Source: Actinomycetota bacterium
Lineage (GTDB): Bacteria > Actinomycetota > UBA4738 > CALAEC01
Direction of reading: 5' to 3'
DNA length: 64,000 nt
NCBI GenBank assembly: GCA_035642095.1
Contig: DASQTB010000048.1
Coordinates: 2,496 to 66,495 of the forward strand
Below, in pieces: positions 1-43,709 of the stretch. The notes under the pieces were generated by a model, which did not search any database, had not been told where the DNA came from, and saw only the letters and a program-made list of their open reading frames with translations. Both the position numbers and the translations under genes were made by a program. Position 1 is the stretch's first letter. The number at the start of each line of letters is the position of its first letter.

Positions 1-166
1 GGGCTTCGGTGGCGCCGTTGCCGGACCCCGGAAGGGCCTCGGTCTCGGCCTGGCGATCGATGTGGGGTTCGTTACCCATAGACACGTGGTGTTCGAGGGT
101 CCGGGACCTCCGGAGGATACTCACCGCGGCTCATCCGCGCCAAACCGTCCTTGGTACCCTTCGAGG

Positions 167-2596
167 ATGGCCAGGCCGTACGACCCGAGCGAGATCGAGC
201 CGACGTGGGCCGACCGGTGGGAGGCGGAGGAGCTGTACGCCGCAGGCGGTGACGACGACCCCCGGCCCCGGTTCTACGCGCTCGACATGTTCCCGTACCC
301 CTCCGGAGACCTGCACATGGGCCACGCCGAGGCCTTCGCCCTGGGAGACGCCATCCCCCGGTTCAAGACCATGCAGGGCTTCAACGTGTTCCACCCGATC
401 GGCTGGGACTCGTTCGGTCTGCCCGCCGAGAACGCCGCCATCAGGCGGGGGATCCACCCGAAGGAGTGGACGTACGCCAACATCGAGAGGCAGGCCCGCT
501 CCTTCAAACGGTACGGAGTGTCCTTCGACTGGCGGACCCGGCTCCACACCTCCGATCCGGAGTACTACCGGTGGACGCAGTGGCTCTTCCTCCGTCTGTA
601 CGAGCGAGGCCTGGCCTACCGCAAGCTGGCCCCGGCCAACTGGTGCCCCAAGGACCAGACGGTCCTGGCCAACGAGCAGGTGGTGGGCGGGGCGTGTGAG
701 CGATGCGGCACCCCGGTAGTTCGTAAGGACCTGACCCAGTGGTTCTTCAAGATCACCGACTACGCCCAGGCGCTCCTGGACGACATGTCGGAGCTGCCGG
801 GGTGGAGTGACCGCGTTCTGACGATGCAGCGCAACTGGATCGGCCGATCCGACGGAGCCGAGGTCGACTTCGAGATCGCCGAAACCGGACAGAACGTCAC
901 CGTGTTCACCACCCGTCCGGACACTCTGTGGGGCGTGACCTTCTTCGTCTTCGCCCCGGAGCATCCCATGGTCGAGGAGCTGGGCCGGATGGGCGGCTCG
1001 TGGGACCAGGTGCGCACGATGCGCGATTCGCTACAGGCCACGCCGCTCACCGCTCGGGAGCAGGCGGAATCACGGGAGGGAATCCTTCTCGGTGTCCATG
1101 CGGTGAATCCGGTGAACGGGGAGAAGGTTCCCTGCTTCGTCGCCCCATACGTGCTGATGGAGTACGGGACGGGAGCGGTCATGGGAGTGCCGGGCCACGA
1201 CCAGCGGGACTTCGAGTTCGCCAGGGCGAACGGCCTCCCGGTTCGCGTGGTCATCGAACCCGAGGGCGAGACCCGGGACCCCGACGCCATGGACCGGGCA
1301 TGGGATCACGAAGGCGTGATGGTCAACTCGGGGCTGTTCGACGGAACGCCCTCGCCGGCCGGGATCGGTGACGTGATCCGTTGGCTGGAGAGCGAGGGGA
1401 AGGGACGGGCCGCGGTGTCGTACCGGCTTCGGGACTGGCTGATCTCCCGGCAGCGCTACTGGGGATGTCCGATCCCCATCATCCACTGTCCGTCGTGCGG
1501 AGAGGTTCCCGTGCCGGACGACCAGCTGCCGGTGGAGCTCCCCGAGGACGTCGACGTCTCACCGACCGGCGAGAGCCCCCTGGCCAGGGATGAAGGCTTC
1601 GTCAACGTCACCTGTCCCGAGTGCGGCGGCGACGCCAAGCGCGATACCGACACCATGGACACGTTCGTCGACTCCTCCTGGTACTACTACCGGTACCTGT
1701 CGCCGCGAGACGACAGGCAGCCGTTCGATTCCGAAGCCGTCCGGCGGTGGATGCCGGTGGGTCAGTACACGGGGGGCATCGAGCACGCCATCCTCCACCT
1801 GCTGTACTCGCGCTTCATCACCAAGGTCCTGAACGACATGGGGATGATCCCCTTCCGGGAACCGTTCCCCAAGCTGCTCAACCAGGGGCAGGTGATCCTT
1901 GGAGGCGCGGCGATGAGCAAGAGCCGGGGCAACATCGTCGAACCGATGCCGATCGTGGAGAAGTACGGCGCCGACACGGTGCGGCTGACCATGCTGTTCG
2001 CCAACAAGCCGGAGGACGATATCGACTGGGCGGACGTATCCCCTCACGGCGTCCACGATTGGCTGGGACGGGTCTGGCGAGTCGTCCACGAGGCTGGGGA
2101 ACGGCAGGGGGAGGATCCCGTCGAGCTTCGGAGGCTGACCCACCGGACGATCTCCCGGGTGACGGACATGTACGAGCGGTTCCGGTTCAATGTCATCGTC
2201 GCTCAGCTGATGTCGCTGTCGAACGAGATCCGGGCCGTGCTCGACGACGGCGAACCGGCCCGCGAGTCGGTCACCGCCTTGGTGCTCATGCTGGCTCCCC
2301 TGGCCCCGTTCATCGCCGAGGAGCTGTGGCGGGAGGCGCTGGGCCAGGAGGGCTCGGTGCATCGGGCCCGGTGGCCCGCGTTCGATCCGGAGCTGGCCAG
2401 GCAGACCACCGTCACCCTGGTGGTCCAGGTGGACGGCAAGGTCAGGGACCGCATCGAGGTGCCCACCGAGGTCTCGGAGTCCGAGGCGGAACGGCTGGCC
2501 CGGTCGTCGACGGGGGCCCTGCGAGCGATCGGGGATCGGCGGGTCGTCCGGGTGGTGGCCCGGCCGCCGAGGCTGGTCAATCTGGTCACGGGGTAG
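167..2596 (+). CDS. leuS: leucine--tRNA ligase
   Basis: Translation MARPYDPSEIEPTWADRWEAEELY...FPYPSGDLHMGHAE (HIGH-like motif) matches class I LeuRS N-terminus. ATG at 167 inside ORF 62..2596; ~810 aa typical length. Confidence 0.9.
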   Translation: MARPYDPSEIEPTWADRWEAEELYAAGGDDDPRPRFYALDMFPYPSGDLHMGHAEAFALGDAIPRFKTMQGFNVFHPIGWDSFGLPAENAAIRRGIHPKEWTYANIERQARSFKRYGVSFDWRTRLHTSDPEYYRWTQWLFLRLYERGLAYRKLAPANWCPKDQTVLANEQVVGGACERCGTPVVRKDLTQWFFKITDYAQALLDDMSELPGWSDRVLTMQRNWIGRSDGAEVDFEIAETGQNVTVFTTRPDTLWGVTFFVFAPEHPMVEELGRMGGSWDQVRTMRDSLQATPLTAREQAESREGILLGVHAVNPVNGEKVPCFVAPYVLMEYGTGAVMGVPGHDQRDFEFARANGLPVRVVIEPEGETRDPDAMDRAWDHEGVMVNSGLFDGTPSPAGIGDVIRWLESEGKGRAAVSYRLRDWLISRQRYWGCPIPIIHCPSCGEVPVPDDQLPVELPEDVDVSPTGESPLARDEGFVNVTCPECGGDAKRDTDTMDTFVDSSWYYYRYLSPRDDRQPFDSEAVRRWMPVGQYTGGIEHAILHLLYSRFITKVLNDMGMIPFREPFPKLLNQGQVILGGAAMSKSRGNIVEPMPIVEKYGADTVRLTMLFANKPEDDIDWADVSPHGVHDWLGRVWRVVHEAGERQGEDPVELRRLTHRTISRVTDMYERFRFNVIVAQLMSLSNEIRAVLDDGEPARESVTALVLMLAPLAPFIAEELWREALGQEGSVHRARWPAFDPELARQTTVTLVVQVDGKVRDRIEVPTEVSESEAERLARSSTGALRAIGDRRVVRVVARPPRLVNLVTG

Positions 2597-2762
2597 CCGA
2601 CCGACGGCCGCCCGCTCGCCGCGCTCCCTTGGCCGGGGGAACGGGGCTCGAGTACCATGTTTCCGTGGCCTCTCCGCGTGACCCGGCCGCGGCCCGAGGC
2701 TGAGGCCCGAGGAGGTTCCAATTTCTGAGGACTCAGGCACCCTCCCGTTCTCCCCCTTCGCC

Positions 2763-5700
2763 TTGCAGGTCCGAAGAACGACCGGGGCCGTGGTCGGCCG
2801 GCCCATCGAGGTGGGGGCGATCCAACAGGGGCTGTCGACGGCGCTCGAAGGTCGGCTGAGCGGCGTCAGCGTGGAGGGAGAGCCGGGGATCGGAAAGACC
2901 CGCCTCCTCCTGGCTGCTTCGGAGCTAGCCCGGGGCCAGGGATTCACCACGATCGCCATCCCCGCCGACGAGGAGATCCGAGGTCCCTTCCTCGTGGCCC
3001 GGTCGATTCTCGGGTCCCCGGACGCCTCCGCGGCCGCCGATACGGCCACGCTCGAGGCCATCGAGCGGAGCCTGGCCGCGCTCGAGGGGCGCGATGAGTC
3101 CGGGCTGGAGAGCCTCCCCGCCGATCGGCGTCTGGTCCGGACGCTCGACCTGGCGGCCGTCGCGGTTCGGTCTCTGGCCGACCAGCGACCGATGGCCCTG
3201 CTGATCGACGATCTCCAGTGGGCCGACGACGACAGTCTCCGGCTCCTCCGCTACGTCGTCCGGGCCACGGTCGCCAGTCGCCTGTTCCTCATGCTGTCCA
3301 TTCGCCCGGAGGAGCTCGCCTTCGTGAACGAGGCCGTCAACCTCCTGGCGGACATGGAGCGTCAGGGCGCGGTCCGGCGACTCAAGCTGGCGCGGTTCGG
3401 ACAGGTGGAGAGCACCGAGTTCCTCCGCCAGGTGCTGGGAGGAAAGGTCGATCCGGCCAGCGCCGCCGTCATGCACGCTCAAGCCGAGGGGGTTCCGTTC
3501 ATCGTCGAGGAGCTGGCCCGAGCGTATCGCGAGGCCGCCATGATCCAGGAGATCGATGGGACGTGGACCCTGGCCAAGAACGCCGAGCGACTGGTTCCCT
3601 CCAGCGTCCGGACGCTCATCTCCCGGCGAGGAGCGCGCCTCCCCGATGAGACCAGGGCCGCACTGGCTGAGGCCGCCATCCTGGGTCGTCATTTCAGCTT
3701 GAAGGACCTCCAGGCGCTCAAGGTCCATCTCGGTGGAGGAGAGGTGACGGCGGAGGCCCTGGACGAGAAGCTACGCCCCGCAGTGGCCGCCGGGTTCCTG
3801 GTGGCCCACGGGGGGGAGTCGCCCGCCGACTACGGCTTCGCGCACGAGCAGGTCCGTGACTTCGCCACGGCAGGCCTGACTCCCACGCGACGGCGAACCA
3901 TCCACGCCGCGGTGGTGGACCTCCTGCTGGTCGGAGAGCCGGCCCCGCAGACCCTTCCCCTCCTCGCGTACCACGCCAAGGCCGCCGGCGACGCTGCCGT
4001 GTGTGTGCGCTTCGCCATGCAGGCCTCTCGGAACGCCCTCGATGCCAGCGCTCCCGAGGAGGTCCTTCGGGTAGTCGACCTGGCCCTCACGGCCGCGGGG
4101 GCGTCGAGGGACCGGATGACGCTCCTCCGGGCCCGCGATGAAGCCCTGGACATGCTGCGGCGCTCGAGCGAGCGGCTTCAAGGGCTGGCGGAGATGGCTG
4201 CCCTGGCCGAGGCCATGGGAGAGAACGAGATCGAGATGGACGTACAGCTTCGGAGAGCGGCGGCGTTCCGCCAGGCCGAGGAGTGGGAGCAGGCGGCGAA
4301 GCTGGCCGCGGGAGTCCGGGACCGGGCTGCGGAGCGAGGGGAGTCGCGGACCGAGCTCGCGGCGTGCCTGCAGCTCGGCCAGGCCCTACTCCAGACGACG
4401 CTCGGAGAGTCGTACTCGCCCCCTGAGAATGAGGTGGACGCGGACGGTGCCGAGAGGGCGTACACGCGAGCTGCCGAGCTGGCGGAGCAACTGGGAGACG
4501 AGTCCAGCCTGGCAGCTACCAACCGCGAGCTGGGGGTGATCCTCCTGGGCCGAGTCCGGACGTGGTTCGTCGGGCGGGTGATGGCAGGCGATCACATCCC
4601 GATGATGCAGCGGGTGGCGGCGGGCGAGTCGCTCGACGAGATCCTGGAGAGCCTACCGGTGGCACCGCTGTTCCAGAAGGTCCAGGAGCGATTCGAGCGC
4701 GCGCTCCAGCTCTACGAGAAGGTCGGCGATCGCCGGGGAGCGATGTCCAGCATCATCGCCATGGCCTACTCGAACTGGGCTCCCGACATCCACCTCGGTG
4801 TGGGAGCGGGCCGGCACATCGAGGAGCTGCGCCGACTGGCTTCCCGGATGGACTCGTTCACCAAGGAGAGCGAACGGTTCGCCGCCGAGGCCCAGATGCT
4901 GTACGGGGCGCACGTGTTCGCTCAGGCCAAGGTCGTCCCCGACCTGGCGCTCTCCCGGGGGGAGGAAACCTATCGCCAGGCCCGGGTCCTGGGGGATCGA
5001 GCGCTCGAGTTCATGGCCGCCGGGGGGACCGCGCTGGCCCACCTGGACCTCGGTGAGGTTGAGGAGGCGAAGGCGTGGCTGGATCGAGCCGCCGCAGCTG
5101 CTGCGGAGAGTCCCACGCCGTTCCGGGCCCGCCAGCTCGAGACGTGGAGGGGGGTGTGGAGCGGGGCCGCAGGTGATGGAGCGGCGATGCTGACGCACCT
5201 GGACCGCGCGGTGAAGCTGGCCACGGAACAGGGCAGGCCCGCGGCCAGGTGTGAGGTCCTGGCCCGCCTGGCGTTGGAGGCGGCCCGGATGGGCGCCGCC
5301 AGCCAGGATGAGCACCTGCTGGGGGCGGCAGAGCGAGCGGCCGGCGAGGCCAAGGAGCTGAATGGGCTCCTGCCGGGCCACCCGCCGTGGGGGGCCCAGG
5401 CCGACGCGGCCCTGGCCCGGGTGGCCCTGGCCCGGGGCGCAAGGGATGAGGCGGCGGCCGCTGCCCGGTCGGCCATGACCGCGTTCGAATCAGCTCTGAC
5501 CGAAGACGCTCATCTGGAGATCCTCCTGCCGGTGGCGGAGGCGCTCCAGGGGACCGATGATGCGGGGAAGCTTCGAGCGTTCCTCCACGTCACCCTGGCG
5601 ATGACGGCCCAACGGACCCTGGACGAGGACGTCCGGGTGCGATGGCTCCGGGGTCCAACGGGCCGAAAGCTGGTCGAGCTGTCGGGCCCGCTCGAGGGAC

Positions 5701-5921
5701 TGGCCATGAGGCCACCGGAGGATGGGCATCCTCCGGTGGAGGAGTCCGACGCCGAACTGATGCGGTTGCTGCTGGAGGGGCTCTCCAACAGGGAGATCGG
5801 GCAGCGGCTCGGGATCGAGGAGCCGGAGGTGAGGCGTCGACTGGGAGCGATGTTCTCGAGGGTCGGGGCGTCCAGCCAAGCCGAGGCGACGGCGTTCGCG
5901 TTCCGGGAGCGGGTGGTCTAG
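2763..5921 (+). CDS. LuxR-family transcriptional regulator with N-terminal AAA+ (STAND) ATPase and TPR-like middle region (LAL/MalT-like)
   Basis: Walker A GEPGIGKTRLL near the N-terminus. Long Ala/Leu-rich helical repeat region. C-terminal LuxR HTH (LSNREIGQRLGIEEPEVRRRLGAMFSRVG). Confidence 0.75.
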   Translation: MQVRRTTGAVVGRPIEVGAIQQGLSTALEGRLSGVSVEGEPGIGKTRLLLAASELARGQGFTTIAIPADEEIRGPFLVARSILGSPDASAAADTATLEAIERSLAALEGRDESGLESLPADRRLVRTLDLAAVAVRSLADQRPMALLIDDLQWADDDSLRLLRYVVRATVASRLFLMLSIRPEELAFVNEAVNLLADMERQGAVRRLKLARFGQVESTEFLRQVLGGKVDPASAAVMHAQAEGVPFIVEELARAYREAAMIQEIDGTWTLAKNAERLVPSSVRTLISRRGARLPDETRAALAEAAILGRHFSLKDLQALKVHLGGGEVTAEALDEKLRPAVAAGFLVAHGGESPADYGFAHEQVRDFATAGLTPTRRRTIHAAVVDLLLVGEPAPQTLPLLAYHAKAAGDAAVCVRFAMQASRNALDASAPEEVLRVVDLALTAAGASRDRMTLLRARDEALDMLRRSSERLQGLAEMAALAEAMGENEIEMDVQLRRAAAFRQAEEWEQAAKLAAGVRDRAAERGESRTELAACLQLGQALLQTTLGESYSPPENEVDADGAERAYTRAAELAEQLGDESSLAATNRELGVILLGRVRTWFVGRVMAGDHIPMMQRVAAGESLDEILESLPVAPLFQKVQERFERALQLYEKVGDRRGAMSSIIAMAYSNWAPDIHLGVGAGRHIEELRRLASRMDSFTKESERFAAEAQMLYGAHVFAQAKVVPDLALSRGEETYRQARVLGDRALEFMAAGGTALAHLDLGEVEEAKAWLDRAAAAAAESPTPFRARQLETWRGVWSGAAGDGAAMLTHLDRAVKLATEQGRPAARCEVLARLALEAARMGAASQDEHLLGAAERAAGEAKELNGLLPGHPPWGAQADAALARVALARGARDEAAAAARSAMTAFESALTEDAHLEILLPVAEALQGTDDAGKLRAFLHVTLAMTAQRTLDEDVRVRWLRGPTGRKLVELSGPLEGLAMRPPEDGHPPVEESDAELMRLLLEGLSNREIGQRLGIEEPEVRRRLGAMFSRVGASSQAEATAFAFRERVV

Positions 5922-5923
5922 CG

Positions 5924-6655
5924 GTGCTCCGGGCCAGGGTCGATCGGCATCGGTGCATCGGAGCGGGGAACTGCATCACGATCGCTCCGACCGCGTTCGA
6001 CTGGCACGAGGGCGATTTCACGAAGGCCGCGGTCATCGACATGGAAAGCGTGGAGGAGGAAGTACTGCGGGAAGCGGCCGTGGCCTGTCCCACCCAGGCC
6101 ATCGTGATCGAGGAGGTCGACGAGCTCCTCCCCTGGCAGTTGCGGGGCAAGGGGGCGCCCCGGCGAGTCCAGAAGACGTTCATGTTCACGGACATCGTGC
6201 GATCCACGAATCTGGTGGAAGCGCTGGGTGATGAGGCGTGGGAGGCTCTACTTCGCTGGCACGACGAGACCCTGCGTTCGCTCTTCTCCGCCCATCGGGG
6301 GGAGGAGGTGGTGGCCACTGGAGATGGGTTCTTCGTCGCCTTCGACTCGCCGGACGACGCTGTAGGGTGCGCTGTCTCCATCCAGCGCCGACTGGCCGAG
6401 CACCGGCAGACGCAGGGGTTCGCCCCGCAGGTCCGCATCGGGGTGCACGCGGCGGGAGCGACCCAGGTGGGCCGCAACTTCACCGGTCGGGGCGTGCACG
6501 AGTCCTCGCGCATCGCCAACATGGCCGAGGGCGGCGAGATCCTGGCCAGCCGCGAGACGGCGGGGGGGAGTGGCTTTCCGGTCTCGGACACACGCACCGT
6601 GTCGGTCCGCGGGATCTCGGAACCGATCGAGGTCGTCTCGGTCGGCTGGCGGTGA
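5924..6655 (+). CDS. ferredoxin-domain / class III adenylate(guanylate) cyclase fusion protein
   Basis: GTG start 2 nt after the upstream stop. N-terminus has a single-cluster ferredoxin motif (RCIGAGNCI...ACPTQAI). The C-terminal cyclase domain carries FMFTDIVRSTNL, GDGFFVAFD and RIGVHAG motifs. Confidence 0.7.
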   Translation: MLRARVDRHRCIGAGNCITIAPTAFDWHEGDFTKAAVIDMESVEEEVLREAAVACPTQAIVIEEVDELLPWQLRGKGAPRRVQKTFMFTDIVRSTNLVEALGDEAWEALLRWHDETLRSLFSAHRGEEVVATGDGFFVAFDSPDDAVGCAVSIQRRLAEHRQTQGFAPQVRIGVHAAGATQVGRNFTGRGVHESSRIANMAEGGEILASRETAGGSGFPVSDTRTVSVRGISEPIEVVSVGWR

Positions 6656-6688
6656 CGTGCTTCTCCGAGCGTCGTCGAGGGGTGACCG

Positions 6689-7414
6689 CTAGAGGACGCG
6701 CACCGCGACCATGACCCCGTCCCGGGTCGGCACGATCGTGGTCCGATAGCGCTCGTCTGTCGCTGCCAGGCGGTTGTGTTCCCGGATCGCCGGGGCCAGC
6801 CGTCCTCGCTGTTGGTCCTCGATCTCCTCGTCCCGAAGGGCCACGTTCCCGCCCCACAAGACGTTGTCACACAGGTAGAGGCCGCCGATCCGGATCCGTC
6901 CGCTGGCCTTCCGCCACGCCTCCGGATAGTCGCCCTTGTCGATGTCGCAGAACACCGCGTCGAACTGGCCCTCGAGATCGTCGATGATCTCGAGAGCGTT
7001 GCCGACGTGTGATCGGACCCGGTCGGCCAGCCCGGCCCGGCCGAGATAGTCCATGGCCTTCCGCTGGTTCTCGGGGTCGCCCTCCGTCATGTGGACCTCA
7101 CCCTCCGGGCCGACGGCCCGAGCGAACCAGAACGCGCTGTACCCGTACCCCGACCCCATCTCCAGCACCCGGCGTGCGCCGATGGCCCGGCTCAGGACCT
7201 CGAGTGTCACTCCCACCGTTCGGCCGACGATGGGAAAGTCACGCTTCTCGGCCTCCCGTTCCATCTCGGCGGCGACGTCGTGCTCTCCGCCCAGCAGGTC
7301 ACCCAGGTACGCCTCGATCCGGGGGTCGACGATGTCCACCGCGGCTCCTTCCCTGGTCGCCCGCCGGGACGGTCGTGGCGACCGACCATTTCCATCACCC
7401 TGCCCAGTGAGCAT
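6689..7414 (-). CDS. class I SAM-dependent O-methyltransferase (caffeoyl-CoA OMT family 3)
   Basis: LEMGSGYGYSAFWFARA...VFCDIDKGDYPE...GGLYLCDNVLWGG motifs. The true start may be an internal GTG (VDIVDPRIEAY...). Confidence 0.7.
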   Translation of the reverse strand: MLTGQGDGNGRSPRPSRRATREGAAVDIVDPRIEAYLGDLLGGEHDVAAEMEREAEKRDFPIVGRTVGVTLEVLSRAIGARRVLEMGSGYGYSAFWFARAVGPEGEVHMTEGDPENQRKAMDYLGRAGLADRVRSHVGNALEIIDDLEGQFDAVFCDIDKGDYPEAWRKASGRIRIGGLYLCDNVLWGGNVALRDEEIEDQQRGRLAPAIREHNRLAATDERYRTTIVPTRDGVMVAVRVL

Positions 7415-7516
7415 AGCGGCGACGGGTCCGTGTCACCCCCAGGGGTTAGCGTTCGCGTGGCGGGATCCGTTCCGGGGTCCTCCCCCTTCGATCGACCATG
7501 GCCCAGGAAGGAGGGG

Positions 7517-8128
7517 ATGGACGGACTTCGCGATTGGCTGTCCGGGCTGAGCCGCCGGGAGCTCGCCTTCGTGTCGCTGCTGGGCCTGGCCGCCCTGAGC
7601 GGCGTGGGGCTGTGGTATGTCCGATCGCTTCCCCAGCCGGTGCGTATCCGTGGTGCGCCCGTGGCCGCGCCCACCGTGTCTCCGAGCCCAGCCGCGGTGA
7701 TCGTTCACGTGGCGGGCTGGGTGCGACGACCGGGCGTGTATCAGCTGGCCGAGGGCCAGCGGGTGATCGACGCGATCGATCTGGCCGGCGGGCCGCGACG
7801 CGGGGCGGACCTCGGCGGCCTGAACCTGGCCGCGGTCCTGACGGACGCCCAGCAGGTCGTCGTGCCGAAGACGGGAGCGACCCCAGGCGCCCCGGGCAGC
7901 TCCGGCGTTCCTACCTCGTCGGCTTCCCCTGCGGCGGCGCTGGTCGACGTGAACACGGCGACACCGGAGGAGCTGGAGACCCTCCCCGGGATCGGGGAGG
8001 TCCTGGCCGGAGCAATCGTCGCCTACCGGGAAGAGCACGGGCCCTTCACGTCCGTCGACCAGCTCCTCGATGTCAGCGGCATCGGAGAGATCACGCTGGA
8101 GGAGATCAGGGAGCTGGTCACGATATGA
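7517..8128 (+). CDS. comEA: competence protein ComEA (DNA-binding, helix-hairpin-helix)
   Basis: Strong RBS GGAAGGAGGGG then ATG. Has an N-terminal TM helix, a SLBB-like region and C-terminal tandem HhH motifs (VNTATPEELETLPGIGEVLAGAIVAYREEHGPFTSVDQLLDVSGIG). Confidence 0.8.
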   Translation: MDGLRDWLSGLSRRELAFVSLLGLAALSGVGLWYVRSLPQPVRIRGAPVAAPTVSPSPAAVIVHVAGWVRRPGVYQLAEGQRVIDAIDLAGGPRRGADLGGLNLAAVLTDAQQVVVPKTGATPGAPGSSGVPTSSASPAAALVDVNTATPEELETLPGIGEVLAGAIVAYREEHGPFTSVDQLLDVSGIGEITLEEIRELVTI

Positions 8129-10518
8129 CGTCGTGGCACCTCCCCGCCGCGGCCCTCGGGTTCGGAGGGGGGTGCCTCCTGGCGGCCGGGCGGCCGCCGG
8201 CCGTGGCCCTCGGTTTCCTCCAGATCCTGGCGGGAGGGGCGCTGTTCGGGGTGGCGCTCCGATGGAAGCGGCGAAGACCGAACATCTCCACGAGCCTCCT
8301 GGTGAACGCGGCGTTGCTTCCGAGCGAACAGGACACGCCGGAACCGCGAGCCCGGATCCTCGCCGCGGCCGGACTCGGGGCCCCGGCTCCGCCCCCGGCC
8401 CACCTCGCCCCCATCGTGCCGATGTTCGTGGCCGCGGTTGCCGGAGGAGCGGGGTGGGCCCTGGTCAGGGCTCCCCCGCCTGTCGGGTCACTCGACGGGC
8501 GCCACATCTGGTTCCAGGCGACCGCGGTCTCTGACGTCCGCCGGGAGGACTGGGGGTGGACGCTCGAGCTCAGCCTGGACCACCTGTCGGTTGACGGTCA
8601 TCCGGTCGAGGCTCATCCCAGGGTGTGGGCGTCCGGATCGCCGCCTGCCCCAGCGGTGACGGCGGGCCGGTCCGTGGCCGGCACGGGAACCATCGAAGCG
8701 CTCCCTCGGCCCGCGGAGGACTTCGATGCGTACCTCGTGGGCAAAGGGATGACCGCCCGGCTGAAGGTCTCCGAGCTCACCGCCCGGGGGCCGCCTGAGA
8801 ATCTCGCCCTCCGGGCGGCGAATGCCGTCCGCGACGCATACCGGCGAGGGGTGAAGTCGAGCCTGTCGCCCCGGCTGGGCGGGCTCCTCCGCGGGCTAGC
8901 CATCGGCGACACCGAGGGAATGGACCCCGAGGTGGAGGAGGACTTCCAGGCCACGGGGCTGACCCATCTCCTGGCGGTCTCGGGGTCGAACGTGGCCCTG
9001 GTGTTGGTTCCAGCCCTGGCCCTGGCGGCCCGGGTCGGGTTCGGCTCGGGACCGAGAGCTATGGCCGGGCTGCTCACCGTGGCGTTGTTCGCCCTGGTGA
9101 CCCGGTGGGAGCCGTCCGTCCTCAGAGCGGGAGCCATGGCGGCTATCGGCCTGGCAGGGTTGTGGTCGGGCCGTCCCCGCCGGGTGGGGGCCGCCCTGGC
9201 GGTCGCCGTGATCGTCCTCTTGGCCGTCGACCCGCTGCTGGCCACCTCGGTGGGGTTCCAGCTGTCGGTCGCGGCCACCGCATCTCTGGCCGGCCTGGCC
9301 GGCCCGGTTGCCCGGCGGCTCACCTGGCTACCGCGCCCCGTGGCCGGGGTTGCGGCGGCCACGATCGCCGCCCAGGTGGGCGTCACGCCGCTCCTCCTGC
9401 TCCGGTTCGGCACCGTTCCCACGGTCACGTTCCTGGCCAACGTGCTGGCCTTTCCGGCCGTCGGGCCGGCGCTGGTGCTCGGTTCGGTCGGGGCGGCCGT
9501 GGTGCCGGCCTGGCCCCAGGCCGGGCAGGCCGTGGGCGAGCTGGCCGGCCTGCCGCTCGGATACCTGGCCGAGGTGGCCGATCGGATGGCCCGGCTGGCG
9601 CTCCCCTCGGTCACGGGGGGCGTGTCCGCCGCGGCCATCGCCGGCGTCTTGGCGATGTTCGTGGCCTGGCGCCTTCGCCGGGGGGTGGCTCGGACGTCGC
9701 TGGCCGGGGTGGTGGTCGCCGCCGCGGTGGCGTGGTCGGCGGCTCCCACCGCAGGACCTCTGCCCTCCCTGACCGTCACCTTTCTGGACGTCGGGCAGGG
9801 CGACGCCGCCGTGGTGCGGACGCCCGATGGGGCAACCGTGCTCATCGATGCCGGACCAGAGGAACGCGACGTGGCCACATCCCTGGCAGCCCTCGGCATC
9901 CGACGGCTCGACGTTGCGGTGGCCTCGCATGCTCATGCCGACCACATCGAAGGGTTCCCCGCGGTCCTGGCTCGGTTCCCGGTGGGACTCCTTCTGGAGC
10001 CCGGGTGTCCGAGCGACTCGCCCTCCTATGCTCGGTTCGTCCGGGCCATCGGGGACGAGGAGGTTCTGGTCCGCCACCCTCGGGGCGGACGGTCCCTCAC
10101 CGTGGGCCGCCTGCGCGTGGAGGTCCTGGGCCCTGATCGCTGCTCGCCCGGCGGATCCGCGCCGAACGACGACTCGGTGGTCCTTCGGCTCACCTACGGG
10201 CCGGCCACGGTGCTGTTTCCGGGTGACGCCGAGGTTCCGGCCCAGGAGGATCTCCTGTCCGACGGCGACCCTGTCCACGCCACGGTGCTGAAGGTTCCGC
10301 ATCATGGCGGGGACACGTCTACCGCGGCGTTCTTCGACGCCGTCGAGGCGACCATGGCCGTGGTCAGCACGGGGCCGAATGACTACGGGCACCCCGACCC
10401 GCGCGTTCTCGCGGCCCTTCGGTCGGAGGGGACGGTCGTGTACCGAACCGATCAGGCCGGGGACGTCACGGTGACGTTCGCCGGGGATGGGTCACCGGTC
10501 GTAGCATCGTCCGGATGA
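8125..10518 (+). CDS. comEC: DNA internalization competence protein ComEC/Rec2 with C-terminal metallo-beta-lactamase domain
   Basis: ATG overlaps the comEA stop (ATGA). Polytopic membrane competence domain. C-terminal MBL motifs (VASHAHADHIEGF, LKVPHHGG). Confidence 0.8.
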   Translation: MTSWHLPAAALGFGGGCLLAAGRPPAVALGFLQILAGGALFGVALRWKRRRPNISTSLLVNAALLPSEQDTPEPRARILAAAGLGAPAPPPAHLAPIVPMFVAAVAGGAGWALVRAPPPVGSLDGRHIWFQATAVSDVRREDWGWTLELSLDHLSVDGHPVEAHPRVWASGSPPAPAVTAGRSVAGTGTIEALPRPAEDFDAYLVGKGMTARLKVSELTARGPPENLALRAANAVRDAYRRGVKSSLSPRLGGLLRGLAIGDTEGMDPEVEEDFQATGLTHLLAVSGSNVALVLVPALALAARVGFGSGPRAMAGLLTVALFALVTRWEPSVLRAGAMAAIGLAGLWSGRPRRVGAALAVAVIVLLAVDPLLATSVGFQLSVAATASLAGLAGPVARRLTWLPRPVAGVAAATIAAQVGVTPLLLLRFGTVPTVTFLANVLAFPAVGPALVLGSVGAAVVPAWPQAGQAVGELAGLPLGYLAEVADRMARLALPSVTGGVSAAAIAGVLAMFVAWRLRRGVARTSLAGVVVAAAVAWSAAPTAGPLPSLTVTFLDVGQGDAAVVRTPDGATVLIDAGPEERDVATSLAALGIRRLDVAVASHAHADHIEGFPAVLARFPVGLLLEPGCPSDSPSYARFVRAIGDEEVLVRHPRGGRSLTVGRLRVEVLGPDRCSPGGSAPNDDSVVLRLTYGPATVLFPGDAEVPAQEDLLSDGDPVHATVLKVPHHGGDTSTAAFFDAVEATMAVVSTGPNDYGHPDPRVLAALRSEGTVVYRTDQAGDVTVTFAGDGSPVVASSG

Positions 10519-11468
10519 AGAACGCTCCGGTCGTGCTGCTCTGGGGGGAGGACCGTTATCTCCTTCGCGAGGCCGGGCGGGCCGAGTTCGAGGGGATGGA
10601 CCCCATGGTGGCCGCCGGTCCCGACTGGCGCCCGGGGCTGACGGCGGACCTGGCCACTCCCTCCCTGCTCGGCGAGCGCCGGGGCCTCGTGGTGGTCGAC
10701 GCCGACGGGCTGTCCGAGGCGGCCGTCGACGAGATCGCGGCCTACGCCGCGTCCCCCTCGCCGGAGGCCCGCCTGGTCCTGTGCTGGACGGTGGGCGGTC
10801 GGGCCAAGGGACCTCCCAAGGGTGTCGTCAAGCGACTGGGGGAGGCCGAGGTTCGTCGGGTGGCCGTGGAGCGAAAGGATCTTCCCCGGTGGGTCCTGGA
10901 ACGAGCCCGGCGCCGGGCCGTGCGAGCCACCCCCCAGGGGGCGGCATCGCTGATCCAGACCGTCGGCGAAGACCTGGCCGGCCTGGATCAGGCCGTGGAA
11001 CAGATCGCCACGGCCCATCCCCAGGATGGCCTCACCCCTGAATCGGTGGCGGCCCAGTTCCGCGGGTTCGGCGACCGCAGGACGTGGGAGCTGTGCGACG
11101 CGGCCTTCGCCGGAGACGGACCAGGAGCGTACCGAGCGCTGGCCGGGATGCTCGAGTCCGGCGAGGAACCCCTCATGGTCCTGGGGGGCGTCGCCGCGCG
11201 GGTCCGAGATCTCCTCCGGGTGGCGTCCCTCGATCCCAGGACTCCACTGGGAGAGGTGGCCCGGTCGGCGGGGTTGAGATTCGACTGGCAGGCTCGTCGG
11301 TACCGGGACCAGTCCCGGCGGTACACCGTGCATCGGCTCCGAGAGCTTCACCGGGAGCTGGTCGAGGCGGATCGGTCGTTGAAGCAGGGAGGGACCGGGG
11401 ACGTGGTCCTGCCGATGCTCGTGTCGAGGATCGTCACCGGAGCGGAACGACCCGTTCGGGCGGGCTAG
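10515..11468 (+). CDS. holA: DNA polymerase III subunit delta
   Basis: Start overlaps the comEC stop. N-terminus VVLLWGEDRYLLREA is typical of HolA. Conserved comEC-holA-rpsT synteny. Confidence 0.75.
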   Translation: MKNAPVVLLWGEDRYLLREAGRAEFEGMDPMVAAGPDWRPGLTADLATPSLLGERRGLVVVDADGLSEAAVDEIAAYAASPSPEARLVLCWTVGGRAKGPPKGVVKRLGEAEVRRVAVERKDLPRWVLERARRRAVRATPQGAASLIQTVGEDLAGLDQAVEQIATAHPQDGLTPESVAAQFRGFGDRRTWELCDAAFAGDGPGAYRALAGMLESGEEPLMVLGGVAARVRDLLRVASLDPRTPLGEVARSAGLRFDWQARRYRDQSRRYTVHRLRELHRELVEADRSLKQGGTGDVVLPMLVSRIVTGAERPVRAG

Positions 11469-11495
11469 GCCCCGCCCGGTGAGCCGCTCAGCCGG

Positions 11496-11759
11496 TCAGC
11501 CGACGGTGCGAGCCGCCCGAGCAAGGCGGGACTTGCGCCTGGCGGCGGTCCGCTTGTGGATCACGCCGCGGGAGGCGGCCTTGTCGAGCATGCTGCCGGT
11601 GGTCCGAAGCTGCGAGCCGACGGCGTCGCCATCGCCCGACTCGATCGCCTGACCGACCTTCTTCGCCGCGGTCCGAAGCCGTGATCGGACGGCCTTGTTC
11701 CGTTCCTGACGCCGTTCGTTCTGGCGGTTTCTCTTGATCTGCGACTTGATGTTGGCCAC
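11496..11759 (-). CDS. rpsT: 30S ribosomal protein S20
   Basis: GTG start giving VANIKSQIKRNRQNERRQERNKAVRSRLRTAAKK..., 87 aa, a canonical S20. The remainder of minus ORF 11496..12242 is antisense to lepA and was rejected. Confidence 0.9.
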   Translation of the reverse strand: MANIKSQIKRNRQNERRQERNKAVRSRLRTAAKKVGQAIESGDGDAVGSQLRTTGSMLDKAASRGVIHKRTAARRKSRLARAARTVG

Positions 11760-11798
11760 GGCGAGCCAGTCTAGCAGTCGCCCCGATACGATGACCGC

Positions 11799-13607
11799 GT
11801 GACCGACCCCTCTCGGATCCGCAACTTCGCCATCATCAGCCACATCGATCACGGGAAGTCGACGCTGGCCGACCGCTTCCTCGACCTGACGCACGCCGTT
11901 CCCGAACGGCAGATGCGAGCGCAGTTCCTGGACCGGATGGACCTTGAGCGGGAGCGGGGCATCACCATCAAGGCCCAAGCCGTCCGCCTCCTCTACAGGG
12001 ACGGGAAGACGGAGCACGTCCTCAACCTCGTCGACACCCCCGGCCACGTGGACTTCACGTACGAGGTCTCGCGAGCTCTGGTGGCCTGCGAGGGCGCGAT
12101 CCTCCTGGTCGATGCGGCCCAGGGGATCGAGGCCCAGACGCTGGCCAACCACCACCTGGCTGAGGAGGCCGGCCTGGCCATCGTCCCCGTGGTCAACAAG
12201 ATCGACCTTCCCCAGGCCGACGTGGCCCAGGCGGTACGCCAATTGGCGGAACTGGCCGGGTGTCGGGAGGACGAGGTGCTCCGGGTCTCGGCGAAGACGG
12301 GGGAGGGCGTCGAGGACCTGCTCCGGGCGGTGATCGCTCGCGTGCCGGGCCCGTCAGGCGAGCCGGACCTGCCTCCTCGGGCGCTGATCTTCGACTCCGC
12401 CTACGACCCCTACCGTGGAGTGGTGGCCTACGTCCGGGTGGTCGACGGTGCCCTTTCCTCCCGAGCCCGGATCAGGATGATGGCCACCGGCCTCGAGTCC
12501 GACGCGGAGGAGGTCGGGGCGTTCGCTCCGGATCCGGTTCCCGTCGATCGCCTCGGGGTGGGCGAGATCGGCTACCTGGTGATCGGAGAGAAGGACGTTC
12601 GCCGGGCCCAGGTCGGCGACACCGTGACGGTGGCCGCCGAACCCGCTTCCCGGCCGCTTCCAGGCTATCGAGAGCCGAAGCCGATGGTGTGGAGCGGGCT
12701 GTACCCGATGGAGGGCGGTGACTACCCCGCCCTCCGGACGGCGCTCGACAAGCTCCGGCTGTCCGATGCGGCGCTGGCGTTCGAGCCGGAGTCCTCCCGC
12801 GCCTTGGGCTTCGGCTTCCGGTGCGGGTTCCTGGGACTGCTCCACATGGACATCGTCCGGGAGCGGCTGGAGCGCGAGTTCGATCTCACGCTGCTGTCCA
12901 CCGCGCCGAACGTGGCGTTCCGGATCCACCGCGGCGACGTTGTGGAGGAGGTCCACAATCCCAGCGAGATGCCGCAGCCGGGAGCGTACGACCGGGTCGA
13001 GGAGCCGGTGGTGGTGGCCACGGTCATCACGCCCAGCGCGTATCTCGGGCCGGTGATGGAGCTGTGCCAGGTCCGCCGAGGATCGATGGAGGAGCTGCGC
13101 TATCTCTCCACGGACCGGGTGGAGCTCCGATACCTCCTCCCCCTGGCCGAGATCATCTTCGACTTCTTCGACCAGCTGAAGTCCCGGACCAGGGGGTACG
13201 CCTCGCTGGACTACGAGCACCGGGGCCACCAGGAAGCCGACCTGGTCCGGGTGGACGTCCTCCTCCACGGTGAGCCGGTCGACGCGTTCAGCGCCGTTGT
13301 CCACCGCGAGAAGGCCCAGGCGTACGGGCGCCGGATGGTCGACCGGCTTCGGGAGCTGATCCCCCGCCAGCTCTTCGACGTGGCCATCCAGGCCGCGATC
13401 GGGTCCCGGATCGTGGCCCGGGAAACGTTGAAGGCCAAGCGCAAGGACGTCCTGGCCAAGTGCTATGGAGGCGACGTCACCCGGAAGCGGAAGCTCCTGG
13501 AGAAGCAGAAGGCCGGGAAGCAGCGCCTCCGCCGAGTGGGGAAGGTCGACGTTCCACACGAGGCGTTCATCGCCGCCCTGCGAGTCGACTCGGGAGGCTC
13601 GCCATGA
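11799..13607 (+). CDS. lepA: elongation factor 4 (LepA)
   Basis: G-domain motifs [20 protein letters not shown] and DTPGHVDF. C-terminal LepA-specific domain. 602 aa. Confidence 0.92.
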
Positions 13608-14673
13608 TCCCGGTGGAGACGACGGCGGGGCTGTACGTGCACGTGCCCTTCTGCCTGACTCGGTGCGGTTACTGCGACTTCAACGCCCACGCTGGGCTCG
13701 ATCATCTCCAGGACGCCTACGTCCGGCGCTGAAGGTCGAGGCGGACCGAGCGGCGGGTAAATGGTCCGAGATCCGGTTCGTCTCGGTGTTTCTGGGCGGG
13801 GGGACCCCCACGACGCTCCATCCCGAGGCGATCCTGAGCCTCCTCGACCATCTCCGGGCGCGATTCGAGGTCGCGGAGAACGCCGAGGTCACCTGCGAGG
13901 CGAACCCGGACACCGTCGACGAACGGTCGCTCTGCTCGCTCCAGCCGGCGGGATCACCCGGATCTCGCTCGGCGTCCAGTCCTTCGATCCCTCCGTCCTG
14001 GCCTCGCTGGAACGGGTCCACCGGCCCAGTCGGCCGTCCGGGCGTTGACCGATGCCCGGGCGGCCGGGTTCTGTGACGTGAACCTCGAACTGATCTACGG
14101 CGCCAGGGCCGAGACCCTGGCGTCGTGGCGGCGGACCCTGAACCGGGCCATCCGGCTGGGGCCAGAACACCTGTCCTGCTATGCGCTGTCGATCGAGCCG
14201 GGTACCCCGCTGGGGCCAAGGTGGCGGCCGGCCTGATCCCGCCCCCCGATCCCGATCTCCAGGCGGACATGTACGAGGTGGCGTGCGGCGCGCTCCGAAC
14301 GGCCGGCTACGAGTCGATCCACAACCTCGGCTACTGGGAGGGCCGGCCGTACCTTGGGGTGGGGGCAGGGGCCCACTCGTTCCGGGGCCGCCGGCGGTGG
14401 TGGAACGTACGGCCGCCGGGCCGGTACGTGGAGCTGGCCCTGGAGGGTCGGTCCACTCAGGCGGGTGGAGAGACTCTGGAGGATGAGGCCCGCCGGCTGG
14501 AGCGGCTCCTCCTGGGGATGCGGCGCGCGACCGGAGTCCCCGCCGGGTGGGTCGATCGGCCGGCCGCCCATGGTTCGTCCGAGTGGTCTCGCTTGGTGGG
14601 AGGGCTCCCGGTTCGGCCCTCACCGAGCCCGGGATGTGATGGCAACGAGGTCGTCCTTGCCGTGGCCGGCTGA
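13604..14673 (+). pseudogene. hemW: heme chaperone HemW / radical-SAM coproporphyrinogen-III-oxidase-like, disrupted by four successive -1 frameshifts
   Basis: ATG overlaps the lepA stop. Radical-SAM motif CLTRCGYCDF lies in frame 2 and stops at 13732. The gene continues as VFLGGGTPT (frame 1), GITRISLGVQSFDP (frame 0), DVNLELIYG...LSCYALSIEPGTP (frame 2) and the C-terminal segment 14125..14673 (frame 1). Approximate shift points are 13725, 13920, 14040 and 14225. Confidence 0.7.
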
Positions 14674-14686
14674 GCCGGAGGGGATG

Positions 14687-14713
14687 CTAGCACTCTCCCC
14701 TGGAGAGTGCTAA
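14687..14713 (+). promoter_or_regulatory. CIRCE element (HrcA operator), CTAGCACTC-N9-GAGTGCTAA
   Basis: Inverted repeat ctagcactc tcccctgga gagtgctaa ending 13 nt upstream of the hrcA start. It matches the consensus TTAGCACTC-N9-GAGTGCTAA with one mismatch. Confidence 0.85.
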
Positions 14714-14725
14714 TAGTAGAGGGTC

Positions 14726-15475: not shown

Positions 15476-15487
15476 AGGGCTGCGTCG

Positions 15488-43706: not shown

Positions 43707-43709
43707 GCC

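Follow-up and report, generated by a model that had tools for sequence, protein, structure and literature searches.

A ferredoxin fused to a class III nucleotidyl cyclase and paired with a STAND/LuxR regulator gene: a possible iron-sulfur-gated signalling cassette in uncultured Actinomycetota and Chloroflexota

The window analysed here, a stretch of 64,000 nucleotides (nt) of contig DASQTB010000048.1 from a member of the Actinomycetota (assembly GCA_035642095.1), has a G+C content of approximately 70% and carries two adjacent genes in the same orientation that form the subject of this study. The upstream gene codes for a large LAL-type regulator, which combines a STAND-type nucleoside triphosphatase (NTPase) with a LuxR-type helix-turn-helix (HTH) domain. 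The downstream gene codes for a small protein in which a single-cluster ferredoxin is fused to a class III nucleotidyl cyclase domain. Counted from the first letter of the window, the two genes and their junction are located as follows.

2763-5921, plus strand: LAL gene, 1052 amino acids (aa), TTG start codon, stop codon TAG at 5919-5921
5919-5926, plus strand: gene junction, with the stop codon TAG, a CG spacer at 5922-5923 and the start codon GTG, read directly off the sequence
5924-6655, plus strand: ferredoxin-cyclase gene, 243 aa, GTG start codon at 5924-5926

An earlier annotation of this locus from the letters of the sequence (the original prediction) had placed a GTG start 2 nt past the LAL stop codon, and the junction (TAG 5919-5921, CG, GTG 5924) agrees with this claim. 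So do the starts of the homologues, which begin with MLRARVDRHRC at the place of GTG 5924 and are nearly all 243-245 aa long; across the loci, the start codon at this position is ATG in 61, GTG in 16, and TTG in three cases. A longer version of the ferredoxin-cyclase open reading frame (ORF), starting from ATG-5642, was rejected because the extra part overlaps the LAL gene in a different reading frame and shows no conservation at the protein level. The G+C content of the three codon positions is 0.70, 0.49, and 0.86 in the ferredoxin-cyclase gene, and that of the third codon position (GC3) is 0.85 in the LAL gene. In the 243-aa protein, the Pfam models Fer4_13 (aa 6-60, 39.8 bits, cut-off 24.5), Fer4_15 (33.9 bits, cut-off 22.4), and Guanylate_cyc (PF00211; aa 85-230, 34.3 bits, cut-off 21.9) all exceed their cut-offs, in agreement with the predicted fusion of a ferredoxin to a cyclase.

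The same fusion recurs in many other genomes. A protein search covering 5.8 billion clusters returned 2864 matches. The best 120 of these, which were examined, are 76-97% identical to the window protein, all but six of them have 242-247 aa, and both the ferredoxin and the cyclase domain were detected in every one except P0104, which is truncated at the N-terminus. A library with clusters at 50% identity places all intact full-length members of the family in one cluster (P0121), and the other matches that reach the ferredoxin part are frameshifted or truncated entries only. A scan of one genome per GTDB species yielded at least 600 pattern matches and at least 576 confirmed relatives, some of which may be cyclase-only paralogues. 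The best 80 of these at least 576 loci show essentially full-length coverage and 64-80% identity. Their labels are mostly those of metagenome-assembled genomes (MAGs) of Actinomycetota, including Gaiellaceae, Solirubrobacterales, and Thermoleophilia, and of Chloroflexota, namely Limnocylindrales, Dehalococcoidia, and Chloroflexia; a few loci have other labels. The original prediction had named an assembly artefact, such as a missed stop codon, as a potential source of the fusion. This explanation was rejected, because the best 120 clusters and 80 genomes share both the architecture and the position of the start. Altogether, every one of the 80 fetched genomes has the fusion, as do hundreds of protein clusters from metagenomes, far more than chance could account for. 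In NCBI, a protein identical to that of the window is deposited as HZB03329.1 ("MAG TPA: ferredoxin [Actinomycetota bacterium]"), and relatives in IMG are labeled "class 3 adenylate cyclase".

The association with the LAL gene is equally regular. A LAL orthologue, 50-66% identical to the window LAL where intact and full-length, lies directly upstream and on the same strand in all 80 fetched genomes. The distance from the LAL stop codon to the ferredoxin-cyclase start was determined in loci drawn from these genomes, the window, and two metagenome contigs. It ranges from -4 to +16 nt in 78 of 80 measurable loci; the 80 include 13 overlaps and 28 gaps of 0-5 nt, and the two outliers are one frameshifted locus and one gap of 43 nt. 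In a reciprocal check starting from two LAL orthologues, the next gene in both cases codes for a 244-aa protein with Fer4_13 and Guanylate_cyc domains, 3 and 13 nt downstream. Co-occurrence across genomes, which the original prediction had singled out as a check on its proposed signalling module, is thus confirmed. None of 120 LAL orthologues contains a Fer4 or cyclase domain itself, so that the split two-gene layout is the rule. All-against-all clustering of the ORFs from 81 loci revealed no third conserved gene, and no other neighbour occurs in more than 19 of the 81; the recurring ones (IclR, aldo/keto reductase, LeuC, NAPRTase) are housekeeping neighbours restricted to particular lineages. 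The pair is a self-contained cassette in variable chromosomal contexts. Its tight spacing supports co-transcription, and translational coupling, as claimed in the original prediction, is plausible from the gene spacing. In the reading that we favour, and to which we give an even chance, the pair represents a two-gene signalling cassette in which an iron-sulfur (Fe-S)-gated cyclase is dedicated to the STAND/LuxR regulator.

The N-terminal part of the smaller protein contains the following features.

5936-6109, plus strand: single-cluster ferredoxin domain, aa 5-62
5954-5956 (C11), 5972-5974 (C17), and 6086-6091 (C55-P56), plus strand: cluster ligands predicted by alignment
5963-5965, plus strand: A14, at the position of the fourth ligand
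6110-6175, plus strand: linker of 22 aa, aa 63-84, EEVDELLPWQLRGKGAPRRVQK

The motif C11-I-G-A14-G-N-C17...C55-P56 is in register with the ligands of solved single-cluster ferredoxins (E 6e-7 to 1e-3), and a failure of the Cys motif to align with ferredoxins, regarded in the original prediction as evidence against the domain, was not observed. The aligned motifs are CIACESC in ferredoxin I of D. africanus (E 6e-7), CIGCGVC in the ferredoxin of T. maritima, CIGDAIC in that of P. furiosus, and CVGHAQC in Rv1786 of Mycobacterium tuberculosis (Mtb). Hence, the column of the second ligand is occupied by Cys in D. africanus and T. maritima, Asp in P. furiosus, His in Rv1786, and Ala14 in the window protein. 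In 79 of 79 species-level genomes, C11, C17, C55, and P56 are kept. Position 14 is Ala in 76 of them, Ile in two, and Ser in one, and it is never Cys, Asp, or His. Three Cys ligands in the pattern CxxAxxC...CP are typical of [3Fe-4S] ferredoxins. Because Ala14 occupies the place of the fourth ligand, the single cluster predicted for this domain is most likely of the [3Fe-4S] type. C149 (6368-6370) in the cyclase domain, which is kept in 64 of the 79 family members, was considered as a fourth cluster ligand and rejected: the cyclases Ma1120 and Rv1900c also have Cys there, which makes it a feature of the cyclase clade. The assignment of the ferredoxin fold rests on sequence comparison. AlphaFold2, suggested in the original prediction as a check of the whole fusion, performed well for the cyclase part (predicted local distance difference test, pLDDT, 74-90) and gave unusable results for ferredoxin and linker, with a pLDDT of 26-45 for the ferredoxin part (aa 1-80); the underlying alignment was shallow (22 sequences, at least 76% identity) and the model contained no cofactor.

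The linker is as well conserved as the domains that it connects. Among the 79 genomes, L69, P70, R74, R81, and V82 are invariant and W71 and Q72 almost so, and the mean pairwise identity is 72% for the linker, 72% for the ferredoxin domain, and 70% for the cyclase domain. This equal conservation of all three parts indicates that selection acts on the ferredoxin part just as it does on the enzyme. The linker is specific to the family, because sister cyclases lack it and align only from approximately aa 75-85 onward. No membrane helix is expected in the protein, given that its highest hydropathy over 19 residues is 1.0. The Fer4_13 and Fer4_15 families mostly comprise small electron-transfer ferredoxins, including the P450 partner Rv1786 of Mtb, and the ferredoxin could on these grounds serve a metabolic partner such as a P450 or a reductase; the cyclase would then report flux, and the link to the LAL would reflect co-regulation. 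We consider this explanation very improbable. The 81 loci share no P450, reductase, or other redox enzyme in the vicinity of the cassette, their only universal neighbour is a transcription regulator, and fusion to a signalling enzyme via an invariant linker would be unexpected for a diffusible electron carrier.

The enzyme part of the proposed Fe-S-gated cyclase is located as follows, with key residues assigned by alignment to Ma1120 (M. avium) and Rv1900c/LipJ (M. tuberculosis).

6176-6652, plus strand: class III cyclase homology domain, aa 85-243
6191-6193 (D90), 6311-6313 (V130), and 6323-6325 (D134), plus strand: cyclase key residues
6476-6478 (N185), 6497-6499 (H192), and 6509-6511 (R196), plus strand: cyclase key residues; also R229

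These two proteins are the closest solved relatives according to a sequence search of the PDB (89 bits for Ma1120 and 60 bits for Rv1900c), and the top NCBIfam match of the ferredoxin-cyclase protein is the LipJ model. In Foldseek comparisons, the modelled cyclase part matches Ma1120 with target-normalised TM-scores of 0.87-0.90 and a root-mean-square deviation of 1.6-1.8 Å, and Rv1900c with target-normalised TM-scores of 0.79-0.84. At the catalytic and specificity positions the three proteins compare as listed here, with the residue numbers of Ma1120 taken from PMC4215837.

Metal-binding Asp (FTD): D90 in this protein, Asp in Ma1120, Asp in Rv1900c
Metal-binding Asp (GDG): D134 in this protein, Asp in Ma1120, Asp in Rv1900c
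First substrate-specifying position: V130 in this protein, K101 in Ma1120, Asn in Rv1900c
Second substrate-specifying position: N185 in this protein, D157 in Ma1120, Asp in Rv1900c
Transition-state Asn position: H192 in this protein, A164 in Ma1120, His in Rv1900c
Transition-state Arg: R196 in this protein, R168 in Ma1120, Arg in Rv1900c

The original prediction had described the class III catalytic domain as complete. Domain and fold are confirmed; completeness is not, since three of the six textbook catalytic and specificity positions are substituted (Lys by V130, Asp by N185, and Asn by H192). Among the 79 genomes, D90, D134, H192, and R196 are always kept, and position 229, in the K/R-G hairpin, is always Lys or Arg. 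Position 130 is Val in 41 genomes, Ser in 17, Thr in ten, Ala in seven, Gly in three, and Asp in one, and never Lys or Glu; position 185 is Asn in 56, Asp in 17, Ser in three, Gly in two, and Ala in one. The FTDIxxST phosphate loop, the GDG motif (extended to GDGF), the Arg, and the K/R-G hairpin agree with both Ma1120 and Rv1900c. At the substrate-specifying positions, Ma1120 retains Lys101 and Asp157 and Rv1900c has Asn and Asp, which differs from Val130 and Asn185 in the window protein. Rv1900c, whose transition-state position is occupied by His just as in the window protein, is an active cyclase, and Sinha et al. are said to have found in 2005 that its residues N342 and H402 are dispensable for activity. 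Ma1120, which likewise has a residue other than Asn at the transition-state position (Ala164), is active with this Ala, and its A164N mutant loses activity (PMC4215837). Because Ma1120 with its Ala is active and Rv1900c has His, the transition-state Asn is not strictly needed in this subgroup. By analogy to these active relatives, from which activity and product (cAMP, cGMP, or other) are inferred, the protein is predicted to be an active cyclase, probably an adenylate cyclase. Its base discrimination would be weak because the purine-selecting Lys is absent, and for the same reason the product could be non-canonical or promiscuous.

Alternatively, the cyclase domain might be a pseudo-enzyme that makes no second messenger and acts as a nucleotide- and redox-sensitive co-regulator by binding to the LAL, as MalK, MalY, and Aes do on MalT. 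The three substituted positions and the free variation at position 130 fit this idea. Inactive cyclic nucleoside monophosphate (cNMP) cyclase domains have been proposed as nucleotide binders or regulators in actinobacterial multi-domain systems (PMC7159879), and a similar role has been proposed for the Mtb proteins Mclx2 and Mclx3 (PMC4452763). The invariance of the metal-binding Asp pair, the transition-state Arg, the phosphate loop, and the K/R-G hairpin over two phyla would be hard to explain without catalysis. Furthermore, the same or similar substitutions are found in the active enzymes Ma1120 and Rv1900c, and we regard a pseudo-enzyme as distinctly unlikely.

The presumed partner of the gated cyclase, the LAL regulator, is composed of the following parts.

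2790-3275, plus strand: AAA_16 NTPase core, aa 10-171 (Pfam)
2877-2900, plus strand: Walker A motif GEPGIGKT, aa 39-46
3198-3212, plus strand: Walker B motif LLIDD, aa 146-150
3945-5687, plus strand: solenoid of tetratricopeptide repeat (TPR)-like helical hairpins, aa ~395-975 (AlphaFold2); presumed sensor or protein-binding arm
5742-5906, plus strand: LuxR/GerE-type HTH, aa 994-1048 (GerE Pfam model and profile search)

The Pfam matches are AAA_16 (aa 10-171, 59.6 bits) and GerE/LuxR HTH (aa 998-1046), the latter borderline at 23.9 bits with a cut-off of 23.5. A profile built from 29 orthologues matches the DNA-binding domains of DevR/DosR, NarL, and GerE in the PDB (E ~3e-8 to 3e-6) and, weakly, TPR proteins (E 0.04-0.07). 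Residues G39, E40, P41, G42, G44, K45, T46, D149, and D150 of the Walker motifs are invariant in both orthologue sets used (29 and 41 sequences). The AlphaFold2 model, obtained with an alignment of 41 orthologues, has a mean pLDDT of 83.6 and consists of an alpha/beta NTPase, a winged-helix region, helical hairpins, and the terminal HTH; within the solenoid, consecutive helix pairs of approximately 17 residues reach pLDDT values of 80-98. The PDB entry that Foldseek ranks first for this model is the STAND protein 6mfv, which has a TPR sensor (E 2.7e-10); Avs3 comes next, and then LGN/Pins and many TPR proteins, with target-normalised TM-scores for the latter of up to 0.71. Pfam detects no significant TPR in the window LAL; TPR_12 is precomputed for about one quarter of 120 LAL orthologues, which are 61-96% identical and 975-1109 aa long. 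Thus, the earlier label of a STAND/TPR LuxR regulator is supported by AAA_16, GerE, and the structural comparisons, and its TPR component lacks a Pfam counterpart in the window protein. As modelled, the LAL joins a STAND P-loop NTPase to a TPR-like arm and a LuxR HTH. Neither phmmer nor a profile search of the PDB found a sequence match to MalT or any solved LAL. The LAL label holds at the level of architecture: size, N-terminal P-loop NTPase, helical-repeat arm, and C-terminal LuxR HTH are shared with MalT and other LAL regulators. The known protein partners of MalT, namely MalK, MalY, and Aes, are inhibitors encoded elsewhere. The window LAL differs from MalT in having an obligate cyclase partner gene.

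With Avs3 as the second-best fold match of the LAL, a defence system in the manner of Avs or Pycsar also comes into view, where the STAND NTPase would sense an invader and the cyclase would make an alarm nucleotide. Cyclases of cNMPs do act as effectors in several conflict systems (PMC7159879). However, neither protein matches any PADLOC model, such as those for Avs and Pycsar, at E values up to 0.001, the STAND protein has a LuxR DNA-binding domain at its effector end, and the cassette sits amid the housekeeping genes leuS, comEC, holA, and lepA. The conservation at 64-97% identity over two phyla is the opposite of the rapid diversification of defence genes, and a defence function appears extremely improbable.

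Further clues to the relation between cyclase and regulator come from the sister clade of the cyclase domain. The best proteins outside the family (190-250 bits) match the cyclase part alone, and this part is C-terminal in almost every listed case. Among the sampled relatives, Pfam revealed the architectures AAA_16-TPR-cyclase (P0147, P0164, P0142), SARP-AAA_16-cyclase (P0153), SARP-cyclase (P0126), Ser/Thr kinase-STAND-TPR-cyclase (P0249), and TPR(MalT-like)-cyclase (P0129, P0132). The sister clade is thus habitually joined to STAND, TPR, or transcription-factor scaffolds. A further relative is P0130, a protein of 1158 aa with the order AAA_16...GerE-cyclase that is a single gene call on its own contig. 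Its cyclase is 61% identical to that of the window over 163 residues, including the GVHExxRIA His variant, and has Asn and Asp at the specificity positions like Rv1900c; the NTPase parts of P0130 and the window LAL share only 26% identity. With a domain order that corresponds to that of the operon, P0130 is a Rosetta-stone fusion. Unlike the window pair, P0130 and the related STAND/TPR/SARP-cyclases are single polypeptides and have no ferredoxin domain.

These architectures also suit a scheme with the reverse direction of information flow. The LAL would oligomerise on binding of a ligand and ATP and recruit the ferredoxin-cyclase, whose dimeric cyclase would be activated by proximity. The linker, by binding the TPR-like arm, might provide the contact, and the Fe-S domain would be a second checkpoint that exerts an oxygen or iron veto. 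Class III cyclases form active sites only on dimerisation, and this need is in line with activation through an oligomeric scaffold. All sister architectures place the cyclase at the C-terminus of the STAND/TPR protein, and in P0130 it follows the LuxR HTH, which is the place of the effector in STAND proteins. The linker, unique to the family and no less conserved than the domains, would also fit, as would the presumed tight co-translation, which suits a stoichiometric complex. On the other hand, fusion to a window-type LAL never occurs (none of the 120 orthologues has a Fer4 or cyclase domain), and a free-standing protein with its own sensor-like domain is more simply understood as an independent input. 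We rate reversed flow as rather unlikely, albeit as the main alternative.

Some database entries seem to represent fusions of all three parts in one chain. In P0123, P0124, P0135, P0191, and P0224, which are representatives of 50%-identity clusters, the LuxR tail is in frame with the ferredoxin domain. As true LAL-ferredoxin-cyclase fusions these entries were rejected, because all contain frameshifted stretches; the read-throughs are probably errors of sequencing and gene calling or of long-read assembly, and a rare genuine fusion may be among them.

A different solution to the linkage of cyclase and regulator is known from the Mclx proteins of M. tuberculosis (Rv0386, Rv1358, Rv2488c), which are made of the same parts, a class III cyclase, a STAND-type NTPase, and a LuxR HTH (PMC4452763). 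An N-terminal cyclase and a C-terminal LuxR domain in one polypeptide, the hallmark of Mclx, are not found in the window pair, where the cyclase is encoded by a separate downstream gene, carries a ferredoxin, and belongs to an otherwise C-terminal cyclase clade. Castro et al. are said to have described in 2005 that Rv0386 has Gln and Asn instead of the canonical Lys-Asp pair. Rv0386 has a guanylyl cyclase side activity (PMC4452763). Mclx proteins are nearly confined to mycobacteria (PMC4452763), whereas the pair of the window type occurs in uncultured Actinomycetota and Chloroflexota. The Mclx/Rv0386-like layout coexists with the cassette in one genome: the 610-kb metagenome contig L081 carries, approximately 3.4 kb downstream of the cassette, a gene (L081:13370-15219) for a protein of 1138 aa with Guanylate_cyc followed by AAA_16. 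Three other cyclase genes were noted near the cassette, at L032:471-3122 (plus strand), L032:3101-4729 (plus strand), and L060:12414-14639 (minus strand). Two of them code for TPR-cyclase paralogues with a domain identity of approximately 50% and the GVHxxxR His variant, and the third for a canonical HAMP-cyclase directly upstream of the LAL gene in L032. The TPR-cyclase ORF in L060 is preceded and overlapped by an ORF for a STAND/TPR protein (14579-16561).

According to the favoured reading of a dedicated Fe-S-gated cyclase, the ferredoxin domain would hold a [3Fe-4S] cluster on Cys11, Cys17, and Cys55, and the cyclase domain would belong to the homodimeric class III nucleotidyl cyclases of actinobacteria represented by Ma1120 and Rv1900c. 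Whether the cluster is oxidised or reduced, and whether it is intact or has been damaged by O2, nitric oxide (NO), or iron limitation, would alter the hold that ferredoxin and linker have on the two cyclase domains, and the altered pairing of these domains would set the rate of cyclic nucleotide synthesis. The product would probably be cAMP, made with relaxed base specificity. The cyclase would be co-produced with the upstream LAL and act specifically on this regulator, through locally released nucleotide or by direct contact, and the LAL would then switch the transcription of unlinked targets in other parts of the genome. The suggestion of the original prediction that the redox or Fe-S state regulates the cyclase is plausible.

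Several observations weigh against this scheme. The canonical Lys, Asp, and Asn are replaced and position 130 is variable, which leaves activity and product uncertain. The AlphaFold2 model contains no confident ferredoxin domain and no confident packing of it on the cyclase (pLDDT 26-45). Small ferredoxins of the Fer4_13/Fer4_15 type are normally electron carriers rather than sensors. A cNMP-binding domain that could receive the product is not detectable in the LAL by Pfam. Where relatives are fused, the cyclase comes after the HTH, a position that suits an output of the STAND protein at least equally well as an input. Finally, the names given in databases go no further than "ferredoxin" or "class 3 adenylate cyclase".

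The known input domains of class III cyclases comprise HAMP, GAF, PAS, BLUF, haem-linked, and pH-sensing domains as well as membrane receptors. We know of no Fe-S-gated cyclase that has been characterised. Full-text literature searches did not find a study of a soluble ferredoxin-cyclase, and the original prediction was right to call ferredoxin an uncommon cyclase partner: the only precedent found is a group of 30 membrane-bound class IIIb cyclases of alpha- and betaproteobacteria with a ferredoxin, to which Beltz et al. (2016; PMC4821796) drew attention on bioinformatic grounds. These proteins have a six-helix cytochrome-b-like anchor that is predicted to bind two haems and is followed by a cytosolic ferredoxin (PMC4821796). 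In this cluster, which includes R. palustris Q132R4, the ferredoxin directly precedes the class III cyclase and a redox input is implied, as in the window protein. However, the Q132R4 cluster is membrane-anchored and belongs to class IIIb, whereas the window protein is soluble, has only 243 aa, contains a cyclase like that of Ma1120/Rv1900c, and is paired with a LAL. No six-helix anchor exists in the window protein, whose ferredoxin starts at residue 5 and whose hydropathy maximum is 1.0. The novelty relative to the Q132R4 cluster is the solubility, the type of cyclase, the obligate LAL pairing, and the taxonomic range. The family as such is made of known parts and follows a known theme, the combination of a cyclase with a STAND/LuxR protein. 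Neither an Fe-S domain nor a dedicated LAL partner has been described for Ma1120 or Rv1900c themselves; the solved entries of Ma1120 consist of cyclase-domain chains with 171-210 residues, and Rv1900c has an N-terminal alpha/beta-hydrolase domain, both unlike the window protein. Fe-S and haem-based sensors such as FNR, NreB (PMC13478379), proteins of the WhiB type, and cyclases linked to haem domains also steer a signalling output through a cofactor domain that is sensitive to redox or O2. The likeness of all these systems to the proposed one is confined to the logic, as none is known to have a single-cluster Fer4_13-type ferredoxin fused to a class III cyclase.

Going further, the proteins might constitute the founding family of soluble Fe-S-gated nucleotidyl cyclases that work in an obligate complex with a STAND/LuxR regulator and convert redox, O2, NO, or iron signals via a cyclic nucleotide into transcription; we offer this only tentatively and consider it possible, if on the doubtful side. 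The compact 243-aa form has been kept at 64-97% identity over two phyla, mostly in uncultured soil and groundwater bacteria. If the cluster does gate the enzyme, a new class of input (redox, O2, NO, iron) would be added to cAMP signalling, and the protein would provide a small soluble model of how an N-terminal cofactor domain steers the geometry of a cyclase dimer. It would also offer a handle on the frequent wiring of cyclases to STAND/LuxR proteins, including Mclx of M. tuberculosis. The strict two-gene layout makes testing in a heterologous host direct.

Genes related to cNMP binding occur near some of the cassettes. In L082, a gene for a SulP-STAS-cNMP_binding transporter (L082:3777-5936) lies directly upstream of the LAL gene, and weakly similar cNMP-binding ORFs are located approximately 8 kb downstream of the cyclase gene in L017, L022, L026, L039, L042, and L045. 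All of these could code for cNMP receptors and have no general linkage to the cassette. The DUF2231, globin, and cNMP-binding genes close to the cassettes of L081 and L082 were likewise considered as linked genes and rejected as not general. Two loci, L005 and L007, both from MAG MFD10007.bin.1.78, each carry a complete cassette with near-equal identity to the query, which could be due to duplication, strain heterogeneity, or a binning artefact.

In the window, the cassette is located between leuS, whose ORF ends at position 2596, and a convergent O-methyltransferase gene, which is followed by comEC, holA, and lepA. The flanking features are as follows.

2597-2762, plus strand: leuS-to-LAL intergenic region, presumed promoter and leader of the two-gene cassette
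6689-7414, minus strand: O-methyltransferase gene (Methyltransf_3), convergent, ending 33 nt past the cyclase stop codon

A scan with the sigma-70 consensus detected no promoter in 2597-2762. Counted in the 130 nt preceding the point aligned to the first residue of the window LAL, an exact TACCCT or ATAATN hexamer, which resembles a -10 element, is present in 33 of 62 related loci and in none of 62 coding controls. The window (2700-2762) has only CACCCT at the matching place, as though the T of GGCTACCCTC had been lost. An in-frame stop codon lies 27 codons 5' of TTG 2763 and no canonical start codon is found in between; the window LAL starts at this TTG without the short N-terminal extension present in many orthologues. 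At the 3' end of the LAL gene, GGGAG (5905-5909) and GGTGG (5912-5916) are possible Shine-Dalgarno-like sites. A search of positions 1-12000 against Rfam found no regulatory RNA, and no terminator was predicted in the 33-nt gap between the cyclase and O-methyltransferase genes. The sole terminator-like site (6753-6773, plus strand), which does not exceed chance level, falls within the methyltransferase ORF.

Further downstream, the comEC ORF (7498-10518, 1006 aa) matches ComEC models only from approximately residue 408 onward. It is overlapped by a 345-aa ORF (7091-8128) that is coding-like with a GC3 of 0.81, and the true genes may be delimited differently, for instance with a comEA-like gene upstream. 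A 517-aa ORF on the minus strand (42204-43757) has a coding-like codon bias and no NCBIfam match at E values up to 1e-10. The remaining window resembles core chromosome, with lepA, glyS, a histidine kinase, a mycosin-like protease, and ppdK.

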